A stretch of DNA of 64,000 nucleotides from Acidimicrobiia bacterium (GTDB lineage: Bacteria; Actinomycetota; Acidimicrobiia; Spongiisociales; ZC4RG35), in contig DASTOM010000024.1 in assembly GCA_035762545.1 (NCBI GenBank), forward strand, positions 1,007 to 65,006. The letters are read 5' to 3'. The notes under the pieces were generated by a model. That model was given only the letters and a program-made list of their open reading frames with translations. It searched no databases and was not told the DNA's origin. This document shows, one piece after another, positions 15,082-59,924 of this stretch. The first letter of the stretch is position 1; each line of letters begins with the position of its first letter. A program made the position numbers and the translations under genes.

Positions 15082-15120
15082 TGGGCCGCGGGTAAAGGCG
15101 CGAAAACTTGACCAAACCCC

Positions 15121-16146
15121 CTGGTCGGCACGACACTTGAAGCGATCAGGCACTTCCTCAACACCTTCGACTGGTCACGACCCGATCTCGACGCACTGCT
15201 CGCCGAAGCACGCGCCTTTCGCGACAACCCGAGGACGTCTGATCTCGAGGGCAAGACCATCGCCCTCCTCTTTCTCAACAACTCGCTTCGCACCAGAACG
15301 TCGTTCGAGGTCGGGGCCTTCCACCTCGGAGGCCACGCCGTCGTTCTCACCCCTTCGGGTGGCATGTGGCCCCTCGAGTTCCAGAAGGACGCCATCATGC
15401 TCGGGGACGCCGAGGAGCACGCCAAAGAGGCCGCCAAGGTGCTCTCTCGCTACTGCGACCTCATCGGGATCAGGGCTTTCCCCAAGTTCGAGAACTGGGA
15501 GGAAGACCGAAAGGACATGATCCTGAACGCCTTCGCCGAGCACGCCGAGGTGCCCATCATCAACATGGAGACCATCACCCACCCTTGCCAGGAGTTGGCG
15601 ATGGCCATGGCCATGCAGGACCGCATGGGCGATCTCGAGGGGAAGAAGTTCCTCCTCACCTGGAGCTACCACCCCAAGCCACTCAACACCGCGGTGGCCA
15701 ACTCCGCGCTCGTCGCCGCCGCCAAGTTCGGGATGGACGTGACTCTGCTCTGCCCCACCGAGGAGTACGAGCTCGACCAGCGCTACCTCGACATCGCCGA
15801 GGCCGACGCCAAGGCCAACCGTAAGAAGATCACGATCTCACACGACATCGACTCGGCATACGACGGAGCAGACTTCGTCTACGCCAAGAGTTGGGGCGCC
15901 CTCCCCTACTTCGGACGCTGGCACGACGAGAAGCCGATCCGCGACCGCTTCAAGCACTTCATCGTCGACGAGGCGAAGATGGCCAGGACCGATGGTGCCC
16001 TGGTGAGCCACTGTCTGCCCATGCGACGCAACGTGATCATGAGCGACGGTGTCTTCGACTCACCCGCTTGTATCGCCTACGACGAGGCCGAGAACCGTTT
16101 GCACGTCCAGAAGGCGATCATGAAGGCCCTCGCCTCCGGAGACTGA
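15121..16146 (+). CDS. argF': N-acetylornithine carbamoyltransferase (ArgF' family)
   Basis: HFLNTFDWSRPDLDALL, SLRTRTSFE, ETITHPCQELA, TWSYHPKPLNTAVANS, AKSWGALPYFG, HCLPMRRN, AENRLHVQKAIM closely follow my recollection of the Xanthomonas AOTCase. The track ORF (15364) lacks the carbamoyl-phosphate site. The only in-frame start candidate after the stop at 15109 is CTG 15121, so the start is uncertain. Confidence 0.85.
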   Translation: MVGTTLEAIRHFLNTFDWSRPDLDALLAEARAFRDNPRTSDLEGKTIALLFLNNSLRTRTSFEVGAFHLGGHAVVLTPSGGMWPLEFQKDAIMLGDAEEHAKEAAKVLSRYCDLIGIRAFPKFENWEEDRKDMILNAFAEHAEVPIINMETITHPCQELAMAMAMQDRMGDLEGKKFLLTWSYHPKPLNTAVANSALVAAAKFGMDVTLLCPTEEYELDQRYLDIAEADAKANRKKITISHDIDSAYDGADFVYAKSWGALPYFGRWHDEKPIRDRFKHFIVDEAKMARTDGALVSHCLPMRRNVIMSDGVFDSPACIAYDEAENRLHVQKAIMKALASGD

Positions 16147-55014: not shown

Positions 55015-56637
55015 TTACGTCCCTGAGTCTGACTCCATCAACAGATCCGCGTACTGGTCCCGCACGACCTTCTTGTCGAACTTGCCGGTTCCGGTCTTGG
55101 GAATCTCATCGACGAACACGATCTCGTCCGGTAGCCACCACTTGGCGACCCGGGTGGAGAGGTGGTCGATCAACTCCTCCGACGTCGCTTCGGCCCCTTG
55201 GGCGAGGACCACGAAGGCGGCGGGACGCTCCTGCCACTTCACGTGCTTCAGCCCGACCACAGTCGCCTCGGCCACCGCGGGATGTGCCATCAGTTCGTTC
55301 TCGACATCGAGAGAACTGATCCACTCGCCGCCCGACTTGATCACGTCCTTGGCCCGGTCGGTGATTCGTATGTAGCCCTCGGGTGTGATCTTGCACACGT
55401 CTCCAGTGCGGAGCCACCCGTCCTCGAAGGACTGAGGAGTCCGATCGTCCTTGTAGTACTCGGCGGCGATCCACGGCCCTCTGATCAGCAGCTCACCGAA
55501 CGCCTCTCCGTCGTGAGGGAGCTCATCACCCACCTCGTCGACGATCTTCACCTGAAGGCCCGAGGTGGGGATTCCAGCCGTCTCGAGTCGATCGAGTTGA
55601 TCCTGGAGGTCCCACTCCTCCATGTGGGGCTTGAGATAGGCCATGGAGGCAACCGGGTTGGTCTCGGTCATCCCCCACCCCTGGATCACCCGTATACCGC
55701 GGTCCCGCCAGTACCCCTCGATCATCGACCGGGGGACGGCAGAGCCTCCACACAAGAAGGCCCGGATCGAGGAGACGTCGATCTCGGGATGGGCATCGAG
55801 ATACTGCTTGATCCCCATCCAGACCGTGGGCACTCCGGCACTGAACGTCACCTTCTCCCCCGTGAACAGGTTGACCAGACCCTCGGGTGACAGGTCGGGC
55901 CCCGGGTAGGTCAGCTTGGCGCCCTTGGTCGTGGCCATGAACGGATAGCCCCATGCAGAGGCATGGAACATCGGGACCACAGGAAGCACATTGTCGGTGG
56001 GCTCGATGGCGAAGTTCGCCAGGTTCGAGATGGTGTGCATGTAGGTGGACCGCTGGGTGTAGGCGACGCCCTTCGGGTTGCCGGTAGTGCCCGACGTGTA
56101 ACAGAACATCATGGGTGACCGCTCGTCGAGCAGCGGCCACTTGCCGTGCTCGGCCTGGTCGGCGATCAAGTCTTCGTAGGCGACCGAGCCCGGGATGGCA
56201 TCGGACGCCTCCGGGCCCATGATCACGAAGGTCTCGACCGTCTCGAACCTGTCGGCCATCGGCGCCAGCAGCGGAACGAGATCGGGGTCGACGAAGATGG
56301 CCTTGTCCCGGGCGTGGTTGACGATGTAGACGATCTGGTCGGCGAAGAGACGGATGTTGATCGTGTGACAGATCCGGCCGGTGTTGGCGGTGGCCCAGTA
56401 CAGCTCATGATGGCGGTGGTTGTTCCAGGCGAAGGTGCCCACCGCTTCGCCCTGACCGACACCGAGGCTGTCGAACGCGGTGGCGAGTCTTCTGATCCTG
56501 GAGTCGATCCCGGCATATGTCCATCGGGAGACCGACCGGTCAGCGTCCACGGACACCACCTCCTGATCCGGGTAGATCCAGGCCGCGTGGTCGTAGAGCG
56601 TGGACAGCAGGAGGGGGAAGTCGTCCTGCATGTGCAT
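55015..56637 (-). CDS. long-chain/medium-chain fatty-acid--CoA ligase (AMP-binding family)
   Basis: Internal ATG 56637 of the 940-aa track ORF: MHMQDDFPLLL...; AMP motif FCYTSGTTGNPKGV, GWGMTET, TGDV...DRAKDVIKSGGEWIS, PKTGTGKFDKK. Confidence 0.9.
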   Translation of the reverse strand: MHMQDDFPLLLSTLYDHAAWIYPDQEVVSVDADRSVSRWTYAGIDSRIRRLATAFDSLGVGQGEAVGTFAWNNHRHHELYWATANTGRICHTINIRLFADQIVYIVNHARDKAIFVDPDLVPLLAPMADRFETVETFVIMGPEASDAIPGSVAYEDLIADQAEHGKWPLLDERSPMMFCYTSGTTGNPKGVAYTQRSTYMHTISNLANFAIEPTDNVLPVVPMFHASAWGYPFMATTKGAKLTYPGPDLSPEGLVNLFTGEKVTFSAGVPTVWMGIKQYLDAHPEIDVSSIRAFLCGGSAVPRSMIEGYWRDRGIRVIQGWGMTETNPVASMAYLKPHMEEWDLQDQLDRLETAGIPTSGLQVKIVDEVGDELPHDGEAFGELLIRGPWIAAEYYKDDRTPQSFEDGWLRTGDVCKITPEGYIRITDRAKDVIKSGGEWISSLDVENELMAHPAVAEATVVGLKHVKWQERPAAFVVLAQGAEATSEELIDHLSTRVAKWWLPDEIVFVDEIPKTGTGKFDKKVVRDQYADLLMESDSGT

Positions 56638-57239
56638 CAGCTGCCACCTCCGAGAAGCTTGCCCTTCTGGGCTTCGAACTCCTCGTCGCTGAGCTTGCCC
56701 TGGTCGTGCAGCCGGGAGAGACGCTCGAGCTGGGAGACGGAGTCTGAGCCGCCGCCACCTCCGTGGTCGTTCGAATGAATCCTCACTTCCCTGACCTTGT
56801 AGATGAGGGACTGGACGGCCTCGGGCTTGGGGATGTCCTTGTACCGGGTCTGACCGTGTGTCCCGGCCGACTCGATCATCAGGTCGCCAGTGCCGAAGAT
56901 CCTCTCGAAGATCGTCTGGTTGAAGGCGACGTTCTGGATCACCTCGAGCGGGATCTCGGTCCCCTGTTTGGCGATCAACCCGGCCCTGTAGATGATGCGC
57001 TCGTTGGTGATGACGTGATTGGTCGTCACCCACCGGGTGATGCCTCTCACGATCAGGACGATCACCAACCCGGCGACCGCCCACAGCAGCCATGTCGGCC
57101 AACCGAGGACCAGGACCAGAACAGCGAGCGCGATCCCGATGAGGATGATGAGACTCTCCCGCAAGATCCCGGACCAGTGCGGCCTGAATTCGGTCTCGAT
57201 GACTTCGCCCTCGCTGAGGAGACGTTTCGGGTAACCCAT
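56637..57239 (-). CDS. membrane PH-domain (bPH_2/YdbS-like) protein with C-terminal SHOCT domain
   Basis: ATG 57239: MGYPKRLLSEGEVIETEFRPHWSGI..., two TM segments, VTTNHVITNERIIYRAG...DLMIESAG, Gly run, then SVSQLERLSRLHDQGKLSDEEFEAQKGKLL. ATGA overlap with the ligase start. Confidence 0.75.
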   Translation of the reverse strand: MGYPKRLLSEGEVIETEFRPHWSGILRESLIILIGIALAVLVLVLGWPTWLLWAVAGLVIVLIVRGITRWVTTNHVITNERIIYRAGLIAKQGTEIPLEVIQNVAFNQTIFERIFGTGDLMIESAGTHGQTRYKDIPKPEAVQSLIYKVREVRIHSNDHGGGGGSDSVSQLERLSRLHDQGKLSDEEFEAQKGKLLGGGS

Positions 57240-57290
57240 GCACCGAGAATACCGGCGCACGGGTTTCCTGGTCGCCGTGTCGGATGTCAT

Positions 57291-57339
57291 GTCGAACCTG
57301 CATGCCGGACCTCGCTCCGGGACACGGTGCAGGCCCGAC
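57291..57339 (-). repeat. third copy of the 12-bp-stem / 25-nt-loop hairpin element
   Basis: On the minus strand, GUCGGGCCUGCA (57339-57328) pairs with UGCAGGUUCGAC (57302-57291). Two G-U pairs form on this strand only. 52 nt upstream of the PH-SHOCT start codon. Confidence 0.65.
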
Positions 57340-57390
57340 AGAAGGGCGTCCGACGGGAACCGGACGAGACGCCCGGCGAAGGACCAGCCC

Positions 57391-57443
57391 AGAACGCGAG
57401 AAACCCCGAGGGAGCATCGGCCGAAGCCTCAACCCTCTCGGGG
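57391..57443 (-). terminator. putative intrinsic terminator of the large RNA candidate
   Basis: CCCCGAGAGGGUUGAGGC[UUCG]GCCGAUGCUCCCUCGGGG (57443-57404) followed by UUUCUCGCGUUCU. Confidence 0.5.
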
Positions 57444-57811
57444 CTCTCATTTCCGATCGGCGTCGGGCCGGGGACCCAACTCCGTTCGGAGATGCAGCGG
57501 GACGAATCCCACTGCGTCGTGATTCGTGAGAATCACGTGGCGTCGGTTTCACAACCTGGCCCCTGGCGACCTCTCGGTCTCCCTGGGCCGACCTTCCGGT
57601 CCGCCGTGGCGAATCTTGCGACAAGCCGTGGTCCGTTTCCGCTCGACGATCCCGAAGGATCCCCTTCCGGTCCTGGACCGACCGTGCGCCTGCAGTTTCC
57701 CGCATGCGTTCGGCTGACCTTCCTGCCGGTTTTACCCGGCTCTCCGGTCCGACCAGTCCTGCGGTTACCCGCCGTGTCGGTCGCCGTCGTCGGGTTTCCC
57801 CGTCGACGTGG
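57391..57811 (-). ncRNA. candidate ~420-nt highly structured RNA, family not recognised
   Basis: No credible ORF in any frame. At least 10 local hairpins whose loops are GNRA or UUCG only on the minus strand. Flanked by a promoter-like TTGTCA-17-TACTTT and a terminator-like hairpin plus UUUCUCGCGUUCU. Ends are estimates. Confidence 0.6.
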
Positions 57812-57816
57812 CGGGA

Positions 57817-57845
57817 AAAGTAGACCACGCCCCCCACCCTGACAA
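57817..57845 (-). promoter_or_regulatory. sigma70-like promoter, TTGTCA (57845-57840) - 17 nt - TACTTT (57822-57817)
   Basis: Read directly. Same hexamers, same 17-nt spacing and a G-rich spacer as the promoter at 58556-58584. Confidence 0.5.
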
Positions 57846-57856
57846 ATCGAATGCGT

Positions 57857-57891
57857 CATTGTTTTTCGCGAGTTGTGAATCAGTTTTCGCG
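57857..57891. promoter_or_regulatory. CATTG + direct repeat TTTTCGCG-N13-TTTTCGCG module (copy A)
   Basis: CATTGTTTTTCGCGAGTTGTGAATCAGTTTTCGCG lies between the RNA promoter and the divergent gene at 57922. A near-identical module lies at 58597-58629. Confidence 0.5.
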
Positions 57892-57921
57892 CCCGGGTAA
57901 CCGACCCGTAGGTTTGCGGCA

Positions 57922-58398
57922 ATGGGAGCCCTCGCAGACTGCGAAGCCATCGTCGACTCGTTCTTGGGGCAGCGGGTCAACTCGATCACCACTCTGGCAT
58001 TCGTGGTGGCGGCGTTCGTGGTCTGGCGGTGGTCGACACGGGTGTGGGTCGCTATCGGTCTCTCCCTGACCGGTGTGGGATCGTTCTTCTTTCACGGACC
58101 GATGCCCTCGTGGGCGCAGGTGGCACACGACGTTTCCCTCTGGTTCCTCGTCGTCATCGTCATCGTCGAGATCGGACGCGACCTGTTGAGAACCAGAGAG
58201 TGGCGCCCCCTTGTCGGTCCGCTGACATTGCTGGCAGTCGTGGCGGTGATCGGTCGACTCGGAGCGACCGGGAACCCACTGTGTGATCCAGCCTCGATCT
58301 GGCAGCCACACGGCCTGTGGCACATCGGTGCGGCTACGGCGGTGACATGGTGGGCGGTTGCTACGGCACCCAAGACCCCCATGACGGATCACTCATGA
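57922..58398 (+). CDS. integral membrane protein, unknown function
   Basis: 158 aa, about 5 TM segments (ITTLAFVVAAFVVW, VWVAIGLSLTGVGSFFFHG, VSLWFLVVIVIVEIG, LTLLAVVAVIG, LWHIGAATAVTWWAV). Confidence 0.6.
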   Translation: MGALADCEAIVDSFLGQRVNSITTLAFVVAAFVVWRWSTRVWVAIGLSLTGVGSFFFHGPMPSWAQVAHDVSLWFLVVIVIVEIGRDLLRTREWRPLVGPLTLLAVVAVIGRLGATGNPLCDPASIWQPHGLWHIGAATAVTWWAVATAPKTPMTDHS

Positions 58399-58399
58399 C

Positions 58400-58549
58400 G
58401 CGGAAGAGCCCCAAGGGAGCCGTGACCGAAGTCTCAGCCCTCTTGGGGCTTCCGGGCCACTCACCCGGAAAGCGGGCCCCGGGATGGGTGACCTTCCAGA
58501 GTCGCCTTGCGGCTACTCCTTCCCCGACTGAGGTTGCCCTCATTCGGTA
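58400..58549 (-). ncRNA. candidate ~150-nt structured sRNA, shorter paralogue of the 57391-57811 RNA
   Basis: Promoter TTGACG-17-TACTTT. Hairpins GAGG[GCAA]CCUC and GCC[GCAA]GGC, a shared GGAAGGUC box, and a terminal UUCG hairpin homologous to that of the large RNA with two compensatory pair changes. Confidence 0.55.
58410..58449. terminator. stem-loop usable as a bidirectional terminator (plus: membrane protein gene; minus: sRNA candidate)
   Basis: CCCCAAGGGAGCCGTGACCGAAGTCTCAGCCCTCTTGGGG starts 12 nt after the stop of 57922..58398. Flanked by CTTCC (plus) and CTCTTCC (minus). The U-tracts are weak. Confidence 0.45.
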
Positions 58550-58555
58550 GAGCGG

Positions 58556-58584
58556 AAAGTACGCAGGGGGGCACAACCCGTCAA
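58556..58584 (-). promoter_or_regulatory. sigma70-like promoter, TTGACG (58584-58579) - 17 nt - TACTTT (58561-58556)
   Basis: Read directly. Paralogous to 57817-57845. Confidence 0.5.
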
Positions 58585-58596
58585 GCCGTCGCACCC

Positions 58597-58629
58597 CATT
58601 GTTTTCGCGTCTTACGGGCAGATTTCGCG
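58597..58629. promoter_or_regulatory. CATTG + direct repeat TTTTCGCG-N12-ATTTCGCG module (copy B)
   Basis: CATTGTTTTCGCGTCTTACGGGCAGATTTCGCG lies between the sRNA promoter and the divergent MFS gene at 58680. Confidence 0.5.
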
Positions 58630-58679
58630 GTCGTAAATGGCGGCTGCGGAGCTCGGGTCATCGTTAGCGTCGAACGTCC

Positions 58680-59924
58680 ATGTGGTCTGACCGGAACGTT
58701 CGCGCCGTGGTGTTCGCACGCCTCATCTCACGCATCGGTGGTGAGGCGGCCTTCTTCGTCGGCATCTGGGGCAAGGCGGCATTCGAACTAGACGCCAACG
58801 CGAGTGAACTGGCGGTCGTGATGGCGGCGCTCGGTGTGGCCTCGCTCATCGGGGCGTCCGTTGCCGGCGTCCTCGTCGACAGATTCGATCCACGACGGGT
58901 CGTGATGGCGGGAGAAGTCCTCTTCGTCCCTGCGGCCCTGACGTTGATCTGGGCCGATTCCATCCCCTCGCTCGCGGTGGCGACGTTCGCACTTGGCTTG
59001 GTGGGCACGCCGGTCTTCACGGCCATCTCTTCGTTCGCACCGTTCCTGACCGACGACGAGAGCAGGCTCGCCAAGATCAACTCCTGGATAGAGGGGGCGT
59101 CGTGGCTGGCGTTCGTCCTCGGCCCGGCCGCGGGCGCCCTTCTCGCCGGGACGCTCGGGATCGACTCCATCTTCGTCCTCGACGCTCTCACCTCCCTCGT
59201 TGCCGCCGCAGTGCTCATTCCGGTGAAGGTCCGCCGCCTGTCGTCCACTACCCATTCCGGAGGGCTGACCGAGCTGAGAGAGGGATTCGCTATCGCGTAC
59301 GGGAACCCTCGGCTCCGCTTCTACATATGGCTGGGATCGTCGGTGTGGCTGATGTTCGGCGTGTTCGGGGCGCTCGAGCCGCTGTTCTACAGAGACGTCC
59401 TCGGAGTCGAGGTCGAGGCGATCGGTTGGGTGAACTCCGTGTTCGGTCTGGGCCTGGTTGGTGGGACTCTCATATCCGGCAGGCTCCCGGAACGGTTTCG
59501 GACGGCCACCTGGCTCACCATCCTCGTTGGGCTCAACGCCGTGGGTGTGCTGGCCTATGTCGGGACCGACCTGATCTCCGTCGTCGTCGTGGCGGCCCCG
59601 TTCTGGGGGATCATCATCGGGATGATGGCGCCGTTGCATCGCACGATGGTCCAGGTCAACTCACCAGATGAGGCCGTCGGTCGGATCATGGGTGTCAGCC
59701 ACATCCACTCCGAGGTCGGCCATCTCCTCCCTCTGGCGTTCGCACCTGCGATAGCGGCCGTCCTCGGCGTGCAGAAGACCCTCCTCTATGCCGGGTCCAT
59801 CGTGGCCGTCGTAGCGATCGTCTTCATCGGCCCGGCGCGCCGTCTCGACCGCACTCGGACCTTCCATGTGCCGCCCACCGGGTTGCCCGACCCCGAAGAG
59901 GAACCGAAGTCGATCAGTCACTGA
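58680..59924 (+). CDS. MFS transporter
   Basis: 414 aa, 12 hydrophobic segments, VDRFDPRRV loop motif between TM2 and TM3. Confidence 0.85.
   Translation: MWSDRNVRAVVFARLISRIGGEAAFFVGIWGKAAFELDANASELAVVMAALGVASLIGASVAGVLVDRFDPRRVVMAGEVLFVPAALTLIWADSIPSLAVATFALGLVGTPVFTAISSFAPFLTDDESRLAKINSWIEGASWLAFVLGPAAGALLAGTLGIDSIFVLDALTSLVAAAVLIPVKVRRLSSTTHSGGLTELREGFAIAYGNPRLRFYIWLGSSVWLMFGVFGALEPLFYRDVLGVEVEAIGWVNSVFGLGLVGGTLISGRLPERFRTATWLTILVGLNAVGVLAYVGTDLISVVVVAAPFWGIIIGMMAPLHRTMVQVNSPDEAVGRIMGVSHIHSEVGHLLPLAFAPAIAAVLGVQKTLLYAGSIVAVVAIVFIGPARRLDRTRTFHVPPTGLPDPEEEPKSISH

Follow-up and report, generated by a model that had tools for sequence, protein, structure and literature searches.

A predicted structured RNA gene of about 150 nt and its larger neighbour, with a common promoter type and terminal hairpin, in Acidimicrobiia

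Within the 64,000 nucleotides (nt) of Acidimicrobiia bacterium contig DASTOM010000024.1 analysed here (assembly GCA_035762545.1, positions 1,007 to 65,006; this whole stretch is called the window below), the minus strand at 58548-58400 very probably holds, as judged from its sequence, a real and independently transcribed non-coding RNA (ncRNA) gene. We lean, if only slightly, towards a fuller statement taken as a whole: that this is a stand-alone, structured small RNA (sRNA) of ~150 nt which would act in trans and which would share a 3′ protein-binding and terminator module with a larger RNA encoded nearby. The parts of this statement are not equally firm. Action of the short RNA in trans is, we infer, likely; operation as a protein-bound ribonucleoprotein (RNP) or as a decoy through the shared hairpin may well be the case, at somewhat less than an even chance; and a main action by base pairing through the loop of helix P4 is doubtful. 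An earlier sequence-only reading had proposed such a gene and its relationship to the large RNA. Its interpretation stands as far as a genuine structured stand-alone RNA gene with shared promoter and hairpin is concerned, but it overstated the alignment of the two RNA bodies.

Results

The short RNA gene lies in a gap between a major facilitator superfamily (MFS) transporter gene (58680-59924, plus strand) and a 158-aa membrane-protein gene of the same strand (Table 1). Read on the minus strand, the gap contains in order two CGCGAAA boxes, TTGACG, a 17-nt spacer, TACTTT, a GC-rich discriminator and a chain of hairpins of ~150 nt. The promoter, the GCAA hairpins GAGG[GCAA]CCUC (58541-58530) and GCC[GCAA]GGC (58513-58504), the box GGAAGGUC (58497-58490), the segment CCCGGGGCCCG (58483-58473) and the terminal hairpin (58449-58410) are all found on this strand where the sequence-only reading had placed them. 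The transcript would start at A58548, which is 8 nt after the -10 and the first base ahead of helix P1, and would end right after the terminal hairpin.

A 156-nt stretch taken for folding reached -84.3 kcal/mol (z = -3.85), and none of 200 shuffles folded as well. The short RNA has five helices, namely P1 enclosing P2, then P3, a long P4 and a terminal P5. When 45 distinct orthologues were aligned with MAFFT on the basis of sequence, with no fitting to structure, 27 of the 49 pairs had changes on both sides, compared with 14.5 ± 2.0 in shuffles, and none of 500 shuffles reached that number. Standard pairs occupied 93.0% of the cells of this alignment, against 34-61% when the partners were slid by one to three columns. 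The compensatory changes in all five helices among orthologues bear out the earlier claim that the structure is under selection.

The strand and the non-coding nature of the gene follow from the same alignment. Indeed, invariant G-U pairs fix the strand, since they would be C-A on the other one, and the swaps between GNRA and UUCG loops with length changes of 2 nt exclude coding: the P2 loop is GNRA or UUCG among the orthologues, while that of P3 is GCAA in the window and UUCG in most orthologues, which are 2 nt shorter. A small open reading frame (ORF) was ruled out by the pattern of indels, which are not multiples of three, together with the covariation. In P4, the pair directly flanking the apical 14-mer GGGGCCCGCUUUCC covaries (C-G, G-C, U-G). 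Minimal short RNAs of 105 nt, found at three loci (L044, L067 and L070; L numbers designate related loci and contigs), retain P4 and P5 only. We also considered a pseudoknot joining GGAAGG (J1/3) to the CUUUCC of the P4 loop and rejected it, as the linker has changed in eight orthologues with the loop unaltered.

The terminal hairpin P5 recurs at the 3′ end of the large RNA, which is encoded 700 bp downstream. In the window it is built of GGAAG/CUUCC, CCCCAAG/CUUGGGG, a bulged A, GGG/CCC, an internal loop and a UUCG-capped tip. Its 5′ arm, AGAGGGYTGAGRCTTCGGYC, occurs twice in the window (57419-57438 and 58424-58443) against 0.06 occurrences expected; GGAAGGTC alone shows no enrichment (5 found, 4.1 expected). 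The sequences that had been quoted for the two hairpins are right, and the double substitutions between them at pairs 5/36 and 17/24 (both G-C to A-U) are real. The 5/36 change recurs in 7 of the 45 orthologues and is minor compared with the covariation in P1-P4. What did not hold was the claim that the hairpin keeps its pairing but not its sequence, since the paired core (CCCCGAG/CUCGGGG and GGG/CCC-or-UUU) is nearly invariant in sequence across the class. Unlike the other helices, this core is the same in 45/45 short and 30/30 large RNAs, an invariance that is in part ascertainment, the genomes with short RNAs having been retrieved through a pattern of the hairpin 5′ arm. About 10 of the 30 large RNAs were found by adjacency only, independently of that pattern, and the core is invariant there too. 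When metagenome contigs were retrieved by their boxes, without regard to the hairpin, about 47 family members were obtained; 32 of these have the strict core and the others close variants of it.

How far the two RNAs are related was measured with R1, a covariance model of the short RNA, for which P5 alone is worth about 50-64 bits. R1 gave 89.5 bits on the last 152 nt of the large RNA. On the large RNA minus its terminal hairpin the score was 9.2 bits, below the 14.2 bits of the best unrelated match in the window; the earlier statement that the ~90 nt ahead of the hairpin can be aligned was therefore not upheld. Weak collinear matches in the body were those of the 5′ hairpin (8.1 bits) and of a central hairpin with GGAAGG plus UUCG (5.7 bits). 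A body-only version of R1 was dropped, as re-alignment had set P2 in two registers. Paralogy can be shown in the upstream boxes, the two promoter hexamers, the discriminator and the hairpin at the 3′ end. We do not extend it to the RNA bodies, for which the 9.2 bits are non-significant and which share only a similar hairpin layout.

The large RNA is modular, with about 14 hairpins in a row, most of them capped by GNRA or UUCG. Individual hairpins have been gained or lost from one species to another, and the length varies accordingly from 298 to 448 nt. Double changes were seen at 25 of its 66 pairs and 97.5% of the cells were paired, the structure having been predicted from the same alignment. 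Four blocks are invariant: the 5′ hairpin CACGUCGAnGGGGAAACCC, CGGGGAUCCUUCGGGAUCGUCG, GGAGUUGGGUCCCCGGCCCGAC and the terminal hairpin. We regard the large paralogue, taken alone, as a candidate for a new large structured RNA. In distant members we observed a tandem hairpin module, CCGG-AA-GGGY-GNAA-GCCY-GA-CCGG, with five copies at L145:340-500 and a UUCG-capped version at L141:560-740; these arrays look like an internal duplication of a unit made of a stem, a purine internal loop and a stem.

Table 1. Positions of the two predicted RNA genes, their promoter elements and adjoining features in the window
Feature	Position	Strand	Remarks
Distal CGCGAAA box, short RNA	58623..58629	-	Invariant in 53/53 aligned orthologous upstream regions
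Proximal CGCGAAA(A) box, short RNA	58603..58609	-	20 nt after distal box, 17 nt before -35
-35 TTGACG, short RNA	58579..58584	-	TTGAC(G/C) conserved in orthologues; spacer drifts
-10 TACTTT, short RNA	58556..58561	-	Actinobacterial TANNNT type, followed by GC-rich discriminator CCGCUCU
Predicted short RNA, ~149 nt	58400..58548	-	R1 covariance model 129 bits, E = 2e-30
P1 (CCGA/UCGG) enclosing P2, GCAA tetraloop	58524..58547	-	Helix 1: double changes at 8/10 pairs
P3 hairpin	58498..58519	-	Helix 2: double changes at 6/8 pairs
P4 long stem-loop with conserved C-A mismatch	58456..58492	-	Helices 3 and 4: double changes at 8/11 pairs
P4 apical 14-mer GGGGCCCGCUUUCC	58467..58480	-	Invariant in 45/45 sequences of this clade
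P5 terminal hairpin, 52 nt	58402..58453	-	Family signature; presumed intrinsic terminator
Convergent 158-aa membrane-protein gene	57922..58398	+	Weak ceramidase-like Pfam match, E = 2e-5, under the family cut-off
Large RNA promoter block	57817..57891	-	Boxes 57891-57885 and 57870-57864; -35 TTGTCA 57845-57840; -10 TACTTT 57822-57817
Predicted large RNA, ~415 nt	57395..57809	-	Minimum free energy -232.5 kcal/mol, z = -8.3
Large RNA terminal hairpin	57398..57448	-	Same module as P5; core pairs invariant in 30/30 sequences
-10 of the bPH_2/SHOCT gene	TATTCT 57251-57246; ATG 57239-57237	-	6 nt ahead of the ATG

Promoters and upstream boxes

The pattern TTGWCR-N17-TACTTT was found exactly twice in the window (58556-58584 and 57817-57845) against 0.00 expected in shuffles, in agreement with the earlier observation that the two RNAs have the same -10 at the same 17-nt spacing. 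Essentially all orthologues have TTGAC(G/C)-N17-18-TA(C/T/G)NTT with unrelated spacers, which is the sequence form of a sigma-A promoter. A generic sigma-70 scan misses the -10 of the short RNA because it matches TATAAT at three of six positions only.

The boxes have a period of 20 nt at the short RNA and 21 nt at the large one, end 17 nt before the -35 and are centred near -56 and -77. This position and the strict CGCG core suggest a sequence-specific activator rather than an A-tract UP element. In the 684 kb of Acidimicrobiia DNA fetched, 148 double boxes were found, and each of them (148/148) stands ahead of the short or the large RNA. A metagenome scan for the double box with TTGNC returned at least 120 stretches and yielded about 47 family RNAs, typically paired; about 70 of 129 metagenome box matches were apparent chance occurrences in unrelated organisms, including an AT-rich satellite.

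The boxes also stand at two kinds of protein-coding genes. In eight contigs (L094, L108, L111, L177, L189, L197, L199 and L202) they lie upstream of a distal promoter and of the leader of nrdJ, the class II ribonucleotide reductase gene, ahead of putative NrdR boxes; three further nrdJ loci show a degenerate double box, a single box and no box, respectively. The metagenome scan gave one double box upstream of dnaB (L127) with a correctly spaced TTGTCG-17-TATCTT. Four more Acidimicrobiia dnaB loci (L212-L215) keep CAC-CGCGAAAA at the same position, which brings the dnaB boxes to 5/5 loci; in these four the second box is full or degenerate, and inverted TTTCGCG copies are present farther upstream. 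The box-bearing nrdJ and dnaB proteins are closest to Acidimicrobiia proteins. On this motif evidence, the boxes are a promoter-upstream element common to both RNA genes and to at least two DNA-replication genes.

Elsewhere in the window, a single GCGCGAAAAC box at 15099-15105 (plus strand) abuts TTGACC upstream of an ornithine-carbamoyltransferase-like gene, and a second lone CGCGAAA occurs at 15217 (minus strand) inside that gene. Both were judged to be chance occurrences.

Distribution and locus organization

Scanning 185,579 species-representative genomes with the hairpin pattern, we obtained 77 stretches. About 75 of them belong to metagenome-assembled genomes (MAGs) of Acidimicrobiia, a count that includes MAGs labelled 'Actinomycetota', 'bacterium' or 'Acidobacteriota' with the same gene order, and about 40 metagenome contigs also carry the pair. 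The two matches in Streptomyces are without boxes and consistent with chance. No genome has more than two copies of the hairpin, both at the locus of the RNA pair, and this includes contigs of 1.2, 2.1 and 2.6 Mb. The hairpin had no match in 2.9 million viral contigs, which rules out a phage or mobile origin. Confined as it is to two genes per genome, and to two copies within the window, the hairpin is not a generic terminator, and it is not a dispersed repeat of the repetitive extragenic palindrome (REP) or miniature inverted-repeat transposable element (MITE) type; such explanations, raised by the sequence-only reading against itself, thus fall away. The RNA pair is a fixed feature of Acidimicrobiia genomes, consisting of two ancient, adjacent and presumably co-regulated genes. 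In three contigs (L034, L045 and L048) the short RNA is inverted, so that it and the large RNA point away from each other on either side of a shared ~80 bp, and the short RNA promoter has one box.

The order at the locus is a PD-(D/E)XK nuclease gene, the MFS gene where present, the short RNA, the ceramidase-like membrane-protein gene where present, the large RNA, bPH_2/SHOCT and an AMP-binding acyl-CoA ligase. The same order with both RNAs was found on contigs whose bPH_2/SHOCT homologues have ~70% identity. The 158-aa membrane-protein gene is missing from many genomes, in which the short and large RNA genes stand in tandem ~500 bp apart; it is a lineage-specific insertion outside the RNA system, and the MFS gene is likewise a lineage-specific insertion at this locus. 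In every case the large RNA precedes the bPH_2 and AMP-binding ligase genes in the same orientation, at a distance of ~45-150 nt. Many orthologous loci have a TAnnCT hexamer 6-9 nt before the bPH_2 ATG, and homologues in protein databases start at MGYP. The gene's own conserved hexamer near the ATG indicates a separate and largely leaderless mRNA. The 217-aa ORF called for bPH_2 in the window (start 57290) is probably wrong.

Long spurious ORFs run over both RNA genes (55015-57837, minus strand; 56763-57842, plus strand; 58361-58594, minus strand), and in one of them, of 940 aa, the ligase and bPH_2 are joined to the large RNA. This is typical of the over-calling in high-GC genomes that hides RNAs. 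In L007, the gene caller stretched the membrane-protein gene into the large RNA promoter.

Some peculiarities of the surrounding DNA were also recorded. Among short metagenome contigs identical to the window (L001-L006), five independent assemblies break at one place, inside the box region of the large RNA and ~92 nt upstream of the membrane-protein gene, where there is a T/C polymorphism between the boxes; strain variation, and not a repeat, is likely behind these breaks. Between the large RNA and bPH_2, G/C-rich palindromes such as GAGGGGGGACGACCCCCCTC are inserted, sometimes twice (L021, L035, L080, L087, L019 and L029), and look like REP or MITE-type insertions. Heptamer tandem repeats adjoin the RNA locus in two cases, of GTACTGA type at L024:2625-2740, and with TCAACGG x7 and CGGGTGA x13.7 at L145:9-176.

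Comparison with known RNA families

At gathering thresholds, Rfam 15 gave no match in the whole window. On positions 57000-59000 at E <= 10 it returned only microRNA and internal ribosome entry site matches at chance level (E = 3-10), and on eight diverse related loci at E <= 1 there was none. Searches of the literature with the exact RNA and DNA strings of three invariant blocks were without match, and keyword searches for structured RNAs in Acidimicrobiia and for 6S RNA in Acidimicrobium brought nothing relevant. The pair is absent from Rfam and from the literature found by string and keyword search, and the family is new to these databases.

Several known types were considered and set aside. 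6S RNA is a rod of ~180 nt whose 5′ and 3′ ends pair to close it and whose large central bubble mimics an open promoter; the short RNA is a chain of five local helices with no 5′-3′ closing stem, and Rfam gave no 6S match. 6C RNA has a pair of hairpins whose loops both contain six or more C in a row; the loops here are GCAA, GCAA or UUCG, GGGGCCCGCUUUCC (longest C run 3) and UUCG, again with no Rfam match. Membership in the CsrB/Rsm type is rejected on loops that are GNRA or UUCG, of varied sequence and without a repeated GGA. In Mycobacterium tuberculosis, the ~90-nt 6C RNA (B11) and the ~300-nt Ms1 (MTS2823) flank one gene. Ms1 is recognized by synteny with a HAD-IB hydrolase and an oxidoreductase and has a 6S-like structure of ~300 nt with a central bubble and additional hairpins at its ends (PMC9130861); that paper does not mention Acidimicrobiia. 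The neighbours here are PD-(D/E)XK, MFS, bPH_2 and AMP-binding genes, and the large RNA is without a long-range closing helix. As abundant stand-alone RNAs of Actinomycetota, 6C and Ms1 (PMC9130861, PMC4191392) are nevertheless the nearest analogy within the phylum. They differ in that Ms1 is 6S-like with a bubble, whereas local hairpin chains are found here, and in that the P4 loop is not of 6C type.

The large RNA taken by itself resembles OLE, GOLLD, ROOL and raiA of Rfam in its 300-450 nt, its many conserved helices with GNRA loops, its restriction to a lineage and its non-coding nature. It differs from them in matching no model and in belonging to a fixed short-plus-long pair with a dedicated promoter type.

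Discussion

In the reading towards which we lean, the RNAs would act in trans and not on the neighbouring gene. P5, with its paired core frozen in sequence, would serve at once as terminator, as protection of the 3′ end and as the place where a partner common to both RNAs, most likely a protein, would dock. Specificity would reside in the variable bodies, through the P4 loop GGGGCCCGCUUUCC in the short RNA of this clade and through the hairpin chain in the large RNA; the P4 loop might do so by base pairing or as a second contact. A factor reading the CGCGAAA boxes would drive expression and, the same boxes being present at the dnaB and nrdJ promoters, production of the RNAs is probably tied to the programme of DNA replication and growth.

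Two pairs of paralogous regulators known from other bacteria have a comparable design. GlmY and GlmZ of Enterobacteriaceae are homologous sRNAs with the same special promoter, upstream activator sites and a similar hairpin layout including the terminator; a shared structural module binds RapZ, and one RNA base-pairs while the other acts as a decoy. The likeness lies in a paralogous RNA pair with a common promoter type and a common structural module, and the difference in phylum, in the lack of homology in sequence or structure, and in the adjacency and roughly three-fold length difference of the pair described here. CsrB/CsrC and RsmX/Y/Z are paralogues of unequal length, with many hairpins, a shared upstream activating sequence, their own terminators, GGA loops and CsrA or RsmA as partner. 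Unequal paralogues and a hairpin number that varies between species are common to both cases, but the hairpins here are individually distinct, capped by GNRA or UUCG, and without the defining GGA repeat. GlmY/GlmZ and CsrB/CsrC are, by design alone, the nearest analogies, and none of them is homologous.

A number of observations weigh against this reading. The protein partner of the hairpin is postulated, and the link to a regulon consists of sequence motifs in metagenome contigs and not at the window's own dnaB or nrdJ. The ends of the short RNA are placed solely by promoter geometry and the hairpin. P5, a stable GC-rich hairpin, is not followed by a classical U-tract, the sequence being GGGGCUCUUCCGC in the window and GGGGUUUCUCGCG in most orthologues, and it is missed by a terminator scan that demands five or more U within 8 nt (tail UUUCUC in most orthologues, CUCUUCC in the window), so that read-through is possible. 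The invariance of the P5 core is weakened by the ascertainment mentioned above and by the hairpin variants CCCCGAGGGGGCUGAGGCUCCGG and UCCCGAGAGGGUGAGGGCUUCGG recovered in the box-based retrieval. Finally, the P4 14-mer is absent from distant lineages that keep the RNA pair and have an ordinary UUCG-capped helix instead, and thus cannot provide a function common to the family; complements of the loop were found neither in the window nor as a recurrent site in the 684 kb of related loci.

The last two observations bear equally on the best of the alternatives, that of a riboregulator acting by base pairing in the manner of the Hfq-independent sRNAs of actinobacteria, with the P4 loop CCCGCUUUCC as seed for G/A-rich mRNA sites resembling Shine-Dalgarno sequences and P5 as terminator only. 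Much of what is seen would suit it: the stem that closes the 14-nt loop covaries and the loop itself is invariant, the 105-nt versions amount to a seed hairpin and a terminator, the gene has a promoter and a presumed terminator of its own, and CUUUCC complements GGAAAG or GGAAGG. We nonetheless consider it unlikely, given the missing complementary sites and the replacement of the loop in distant lineages, and it would leave the frozen P5 stem and its sharing with the 415-nt paralogue unexplained.

The resemblance to CsrB/CsrC and RsmY/RsmZ leads to a second alternative, a sponge pair whose hairpin arrays would titrate one RNA-binding protein, the long RNA with high capacity and the short one with low capacity. 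Paralogues very unequal in length with the same upstream activator sites would be expected of it, as would a hairpin number that varies between species (298-448 nt) and the tandem module arrays of distant members, with five copies in L145. We regard it as quite improbable. The hairpins in the window differ from one another and have in common only the GNRA/UUCG cap, a general feature of structured RNAs rich in GC; nothing that compares with GGA recurs in single strands; a CsrA-like partner is not known, and no search for one was made; and unique invariant blocks such as CGGGGAUCCUUCGGGAUCGUCG and the P4 loop fit a single defined fold better than an array.

Slightly less probable still is regulation in cis. 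The bPH_2 and ligase operon would then have the large RNA as its long leader or attenuator, with the shared hairpin terminating conditionally, and the short RNA would be a duplicate that has decayed or plays an auxiliary part. The constant position of the large RNA just upstream of co-oriented bPH_2 and AMP-binding genes speaks for it, and regulated termination would be in keeping with the poor U-tract. Against it, a conserved -10 of bPH_2's own abuts the start codon, the same boxes stand at dnaB and nrdJ, which are unrelated to fatty-acid activation, and the short RNA is under strong purifying and compensatory selection and hence not decaying. The sequence-only reading had argued that the short copy cannot be a leader, and we agree: downstream of it are the end of the convergent gene in the window, the large RNA promoter in other genomes, or nothing co-oriented in the three lineages (L034, L045 and L048) where it sits on the opposite strand, and covariation extends over the full RNA. 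A riboswitch is rejected on the same grounds.

That there is no RNA gene at all, but DNA-level elements (such as regulator sites for the divergent nuclease or a bidirectional terminator) with incidental folds, is very hard to maintain: the boxes do lie ~35-60 nt from the divergent PD-(D/E)XK start in genomes without the MFS insertion, and the window hairpin 4 nt past the convergent stop codon, but compensatory double substitutions affect five helices over ~150 nt, the G-U pairs that never vary would turn into C-A if the opposite strand were read, genomes without the convergent gene keep the hairpin, and indels are not multiples of three while loops swap GCAA and UUCG.

Going beyond the stand-alone, trans-acting RNA that we favour, one may imagine a regulon coupled to replication and growth. 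In such a system, a factor would read direct CGCGAAAA repeats at dnaB, nrdJ, both RNA genes and possibly the divergent PD-(D/E)XK gene, a protein would dock on the 3′ hairpin, and the ~415-nt RNA would have a defined tertiary fold, together forming an RNP system without a described bacterial counterpart. We put this forward as a speculation that, in its entirety, is improbable.

Acidimicrobiia are abundant in soils, sediments and waters and barely cultured, and the pair adds to their genomes class-wide structured ncRNAs that are absent from Rfam. The large member would, at 300-450 nt, rank among the rare large bacterial RNAs without an assigned role. Paralogous RNAs that share promoter and 3′ module and differ in body make this pair a clean natural example of the design of GlmY/GlmZ and CsrB/CsrC. 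The covariance model and the box motif make the family searchable and annotatable, and account for intergenic regions that looked 'empty' and for spurious ORFs. The CGCGAAAA direct repeats, in tying the RNAs to dnaB and ribonucleotide reductase, lead to a testable hypothesis of replication-coupled control.

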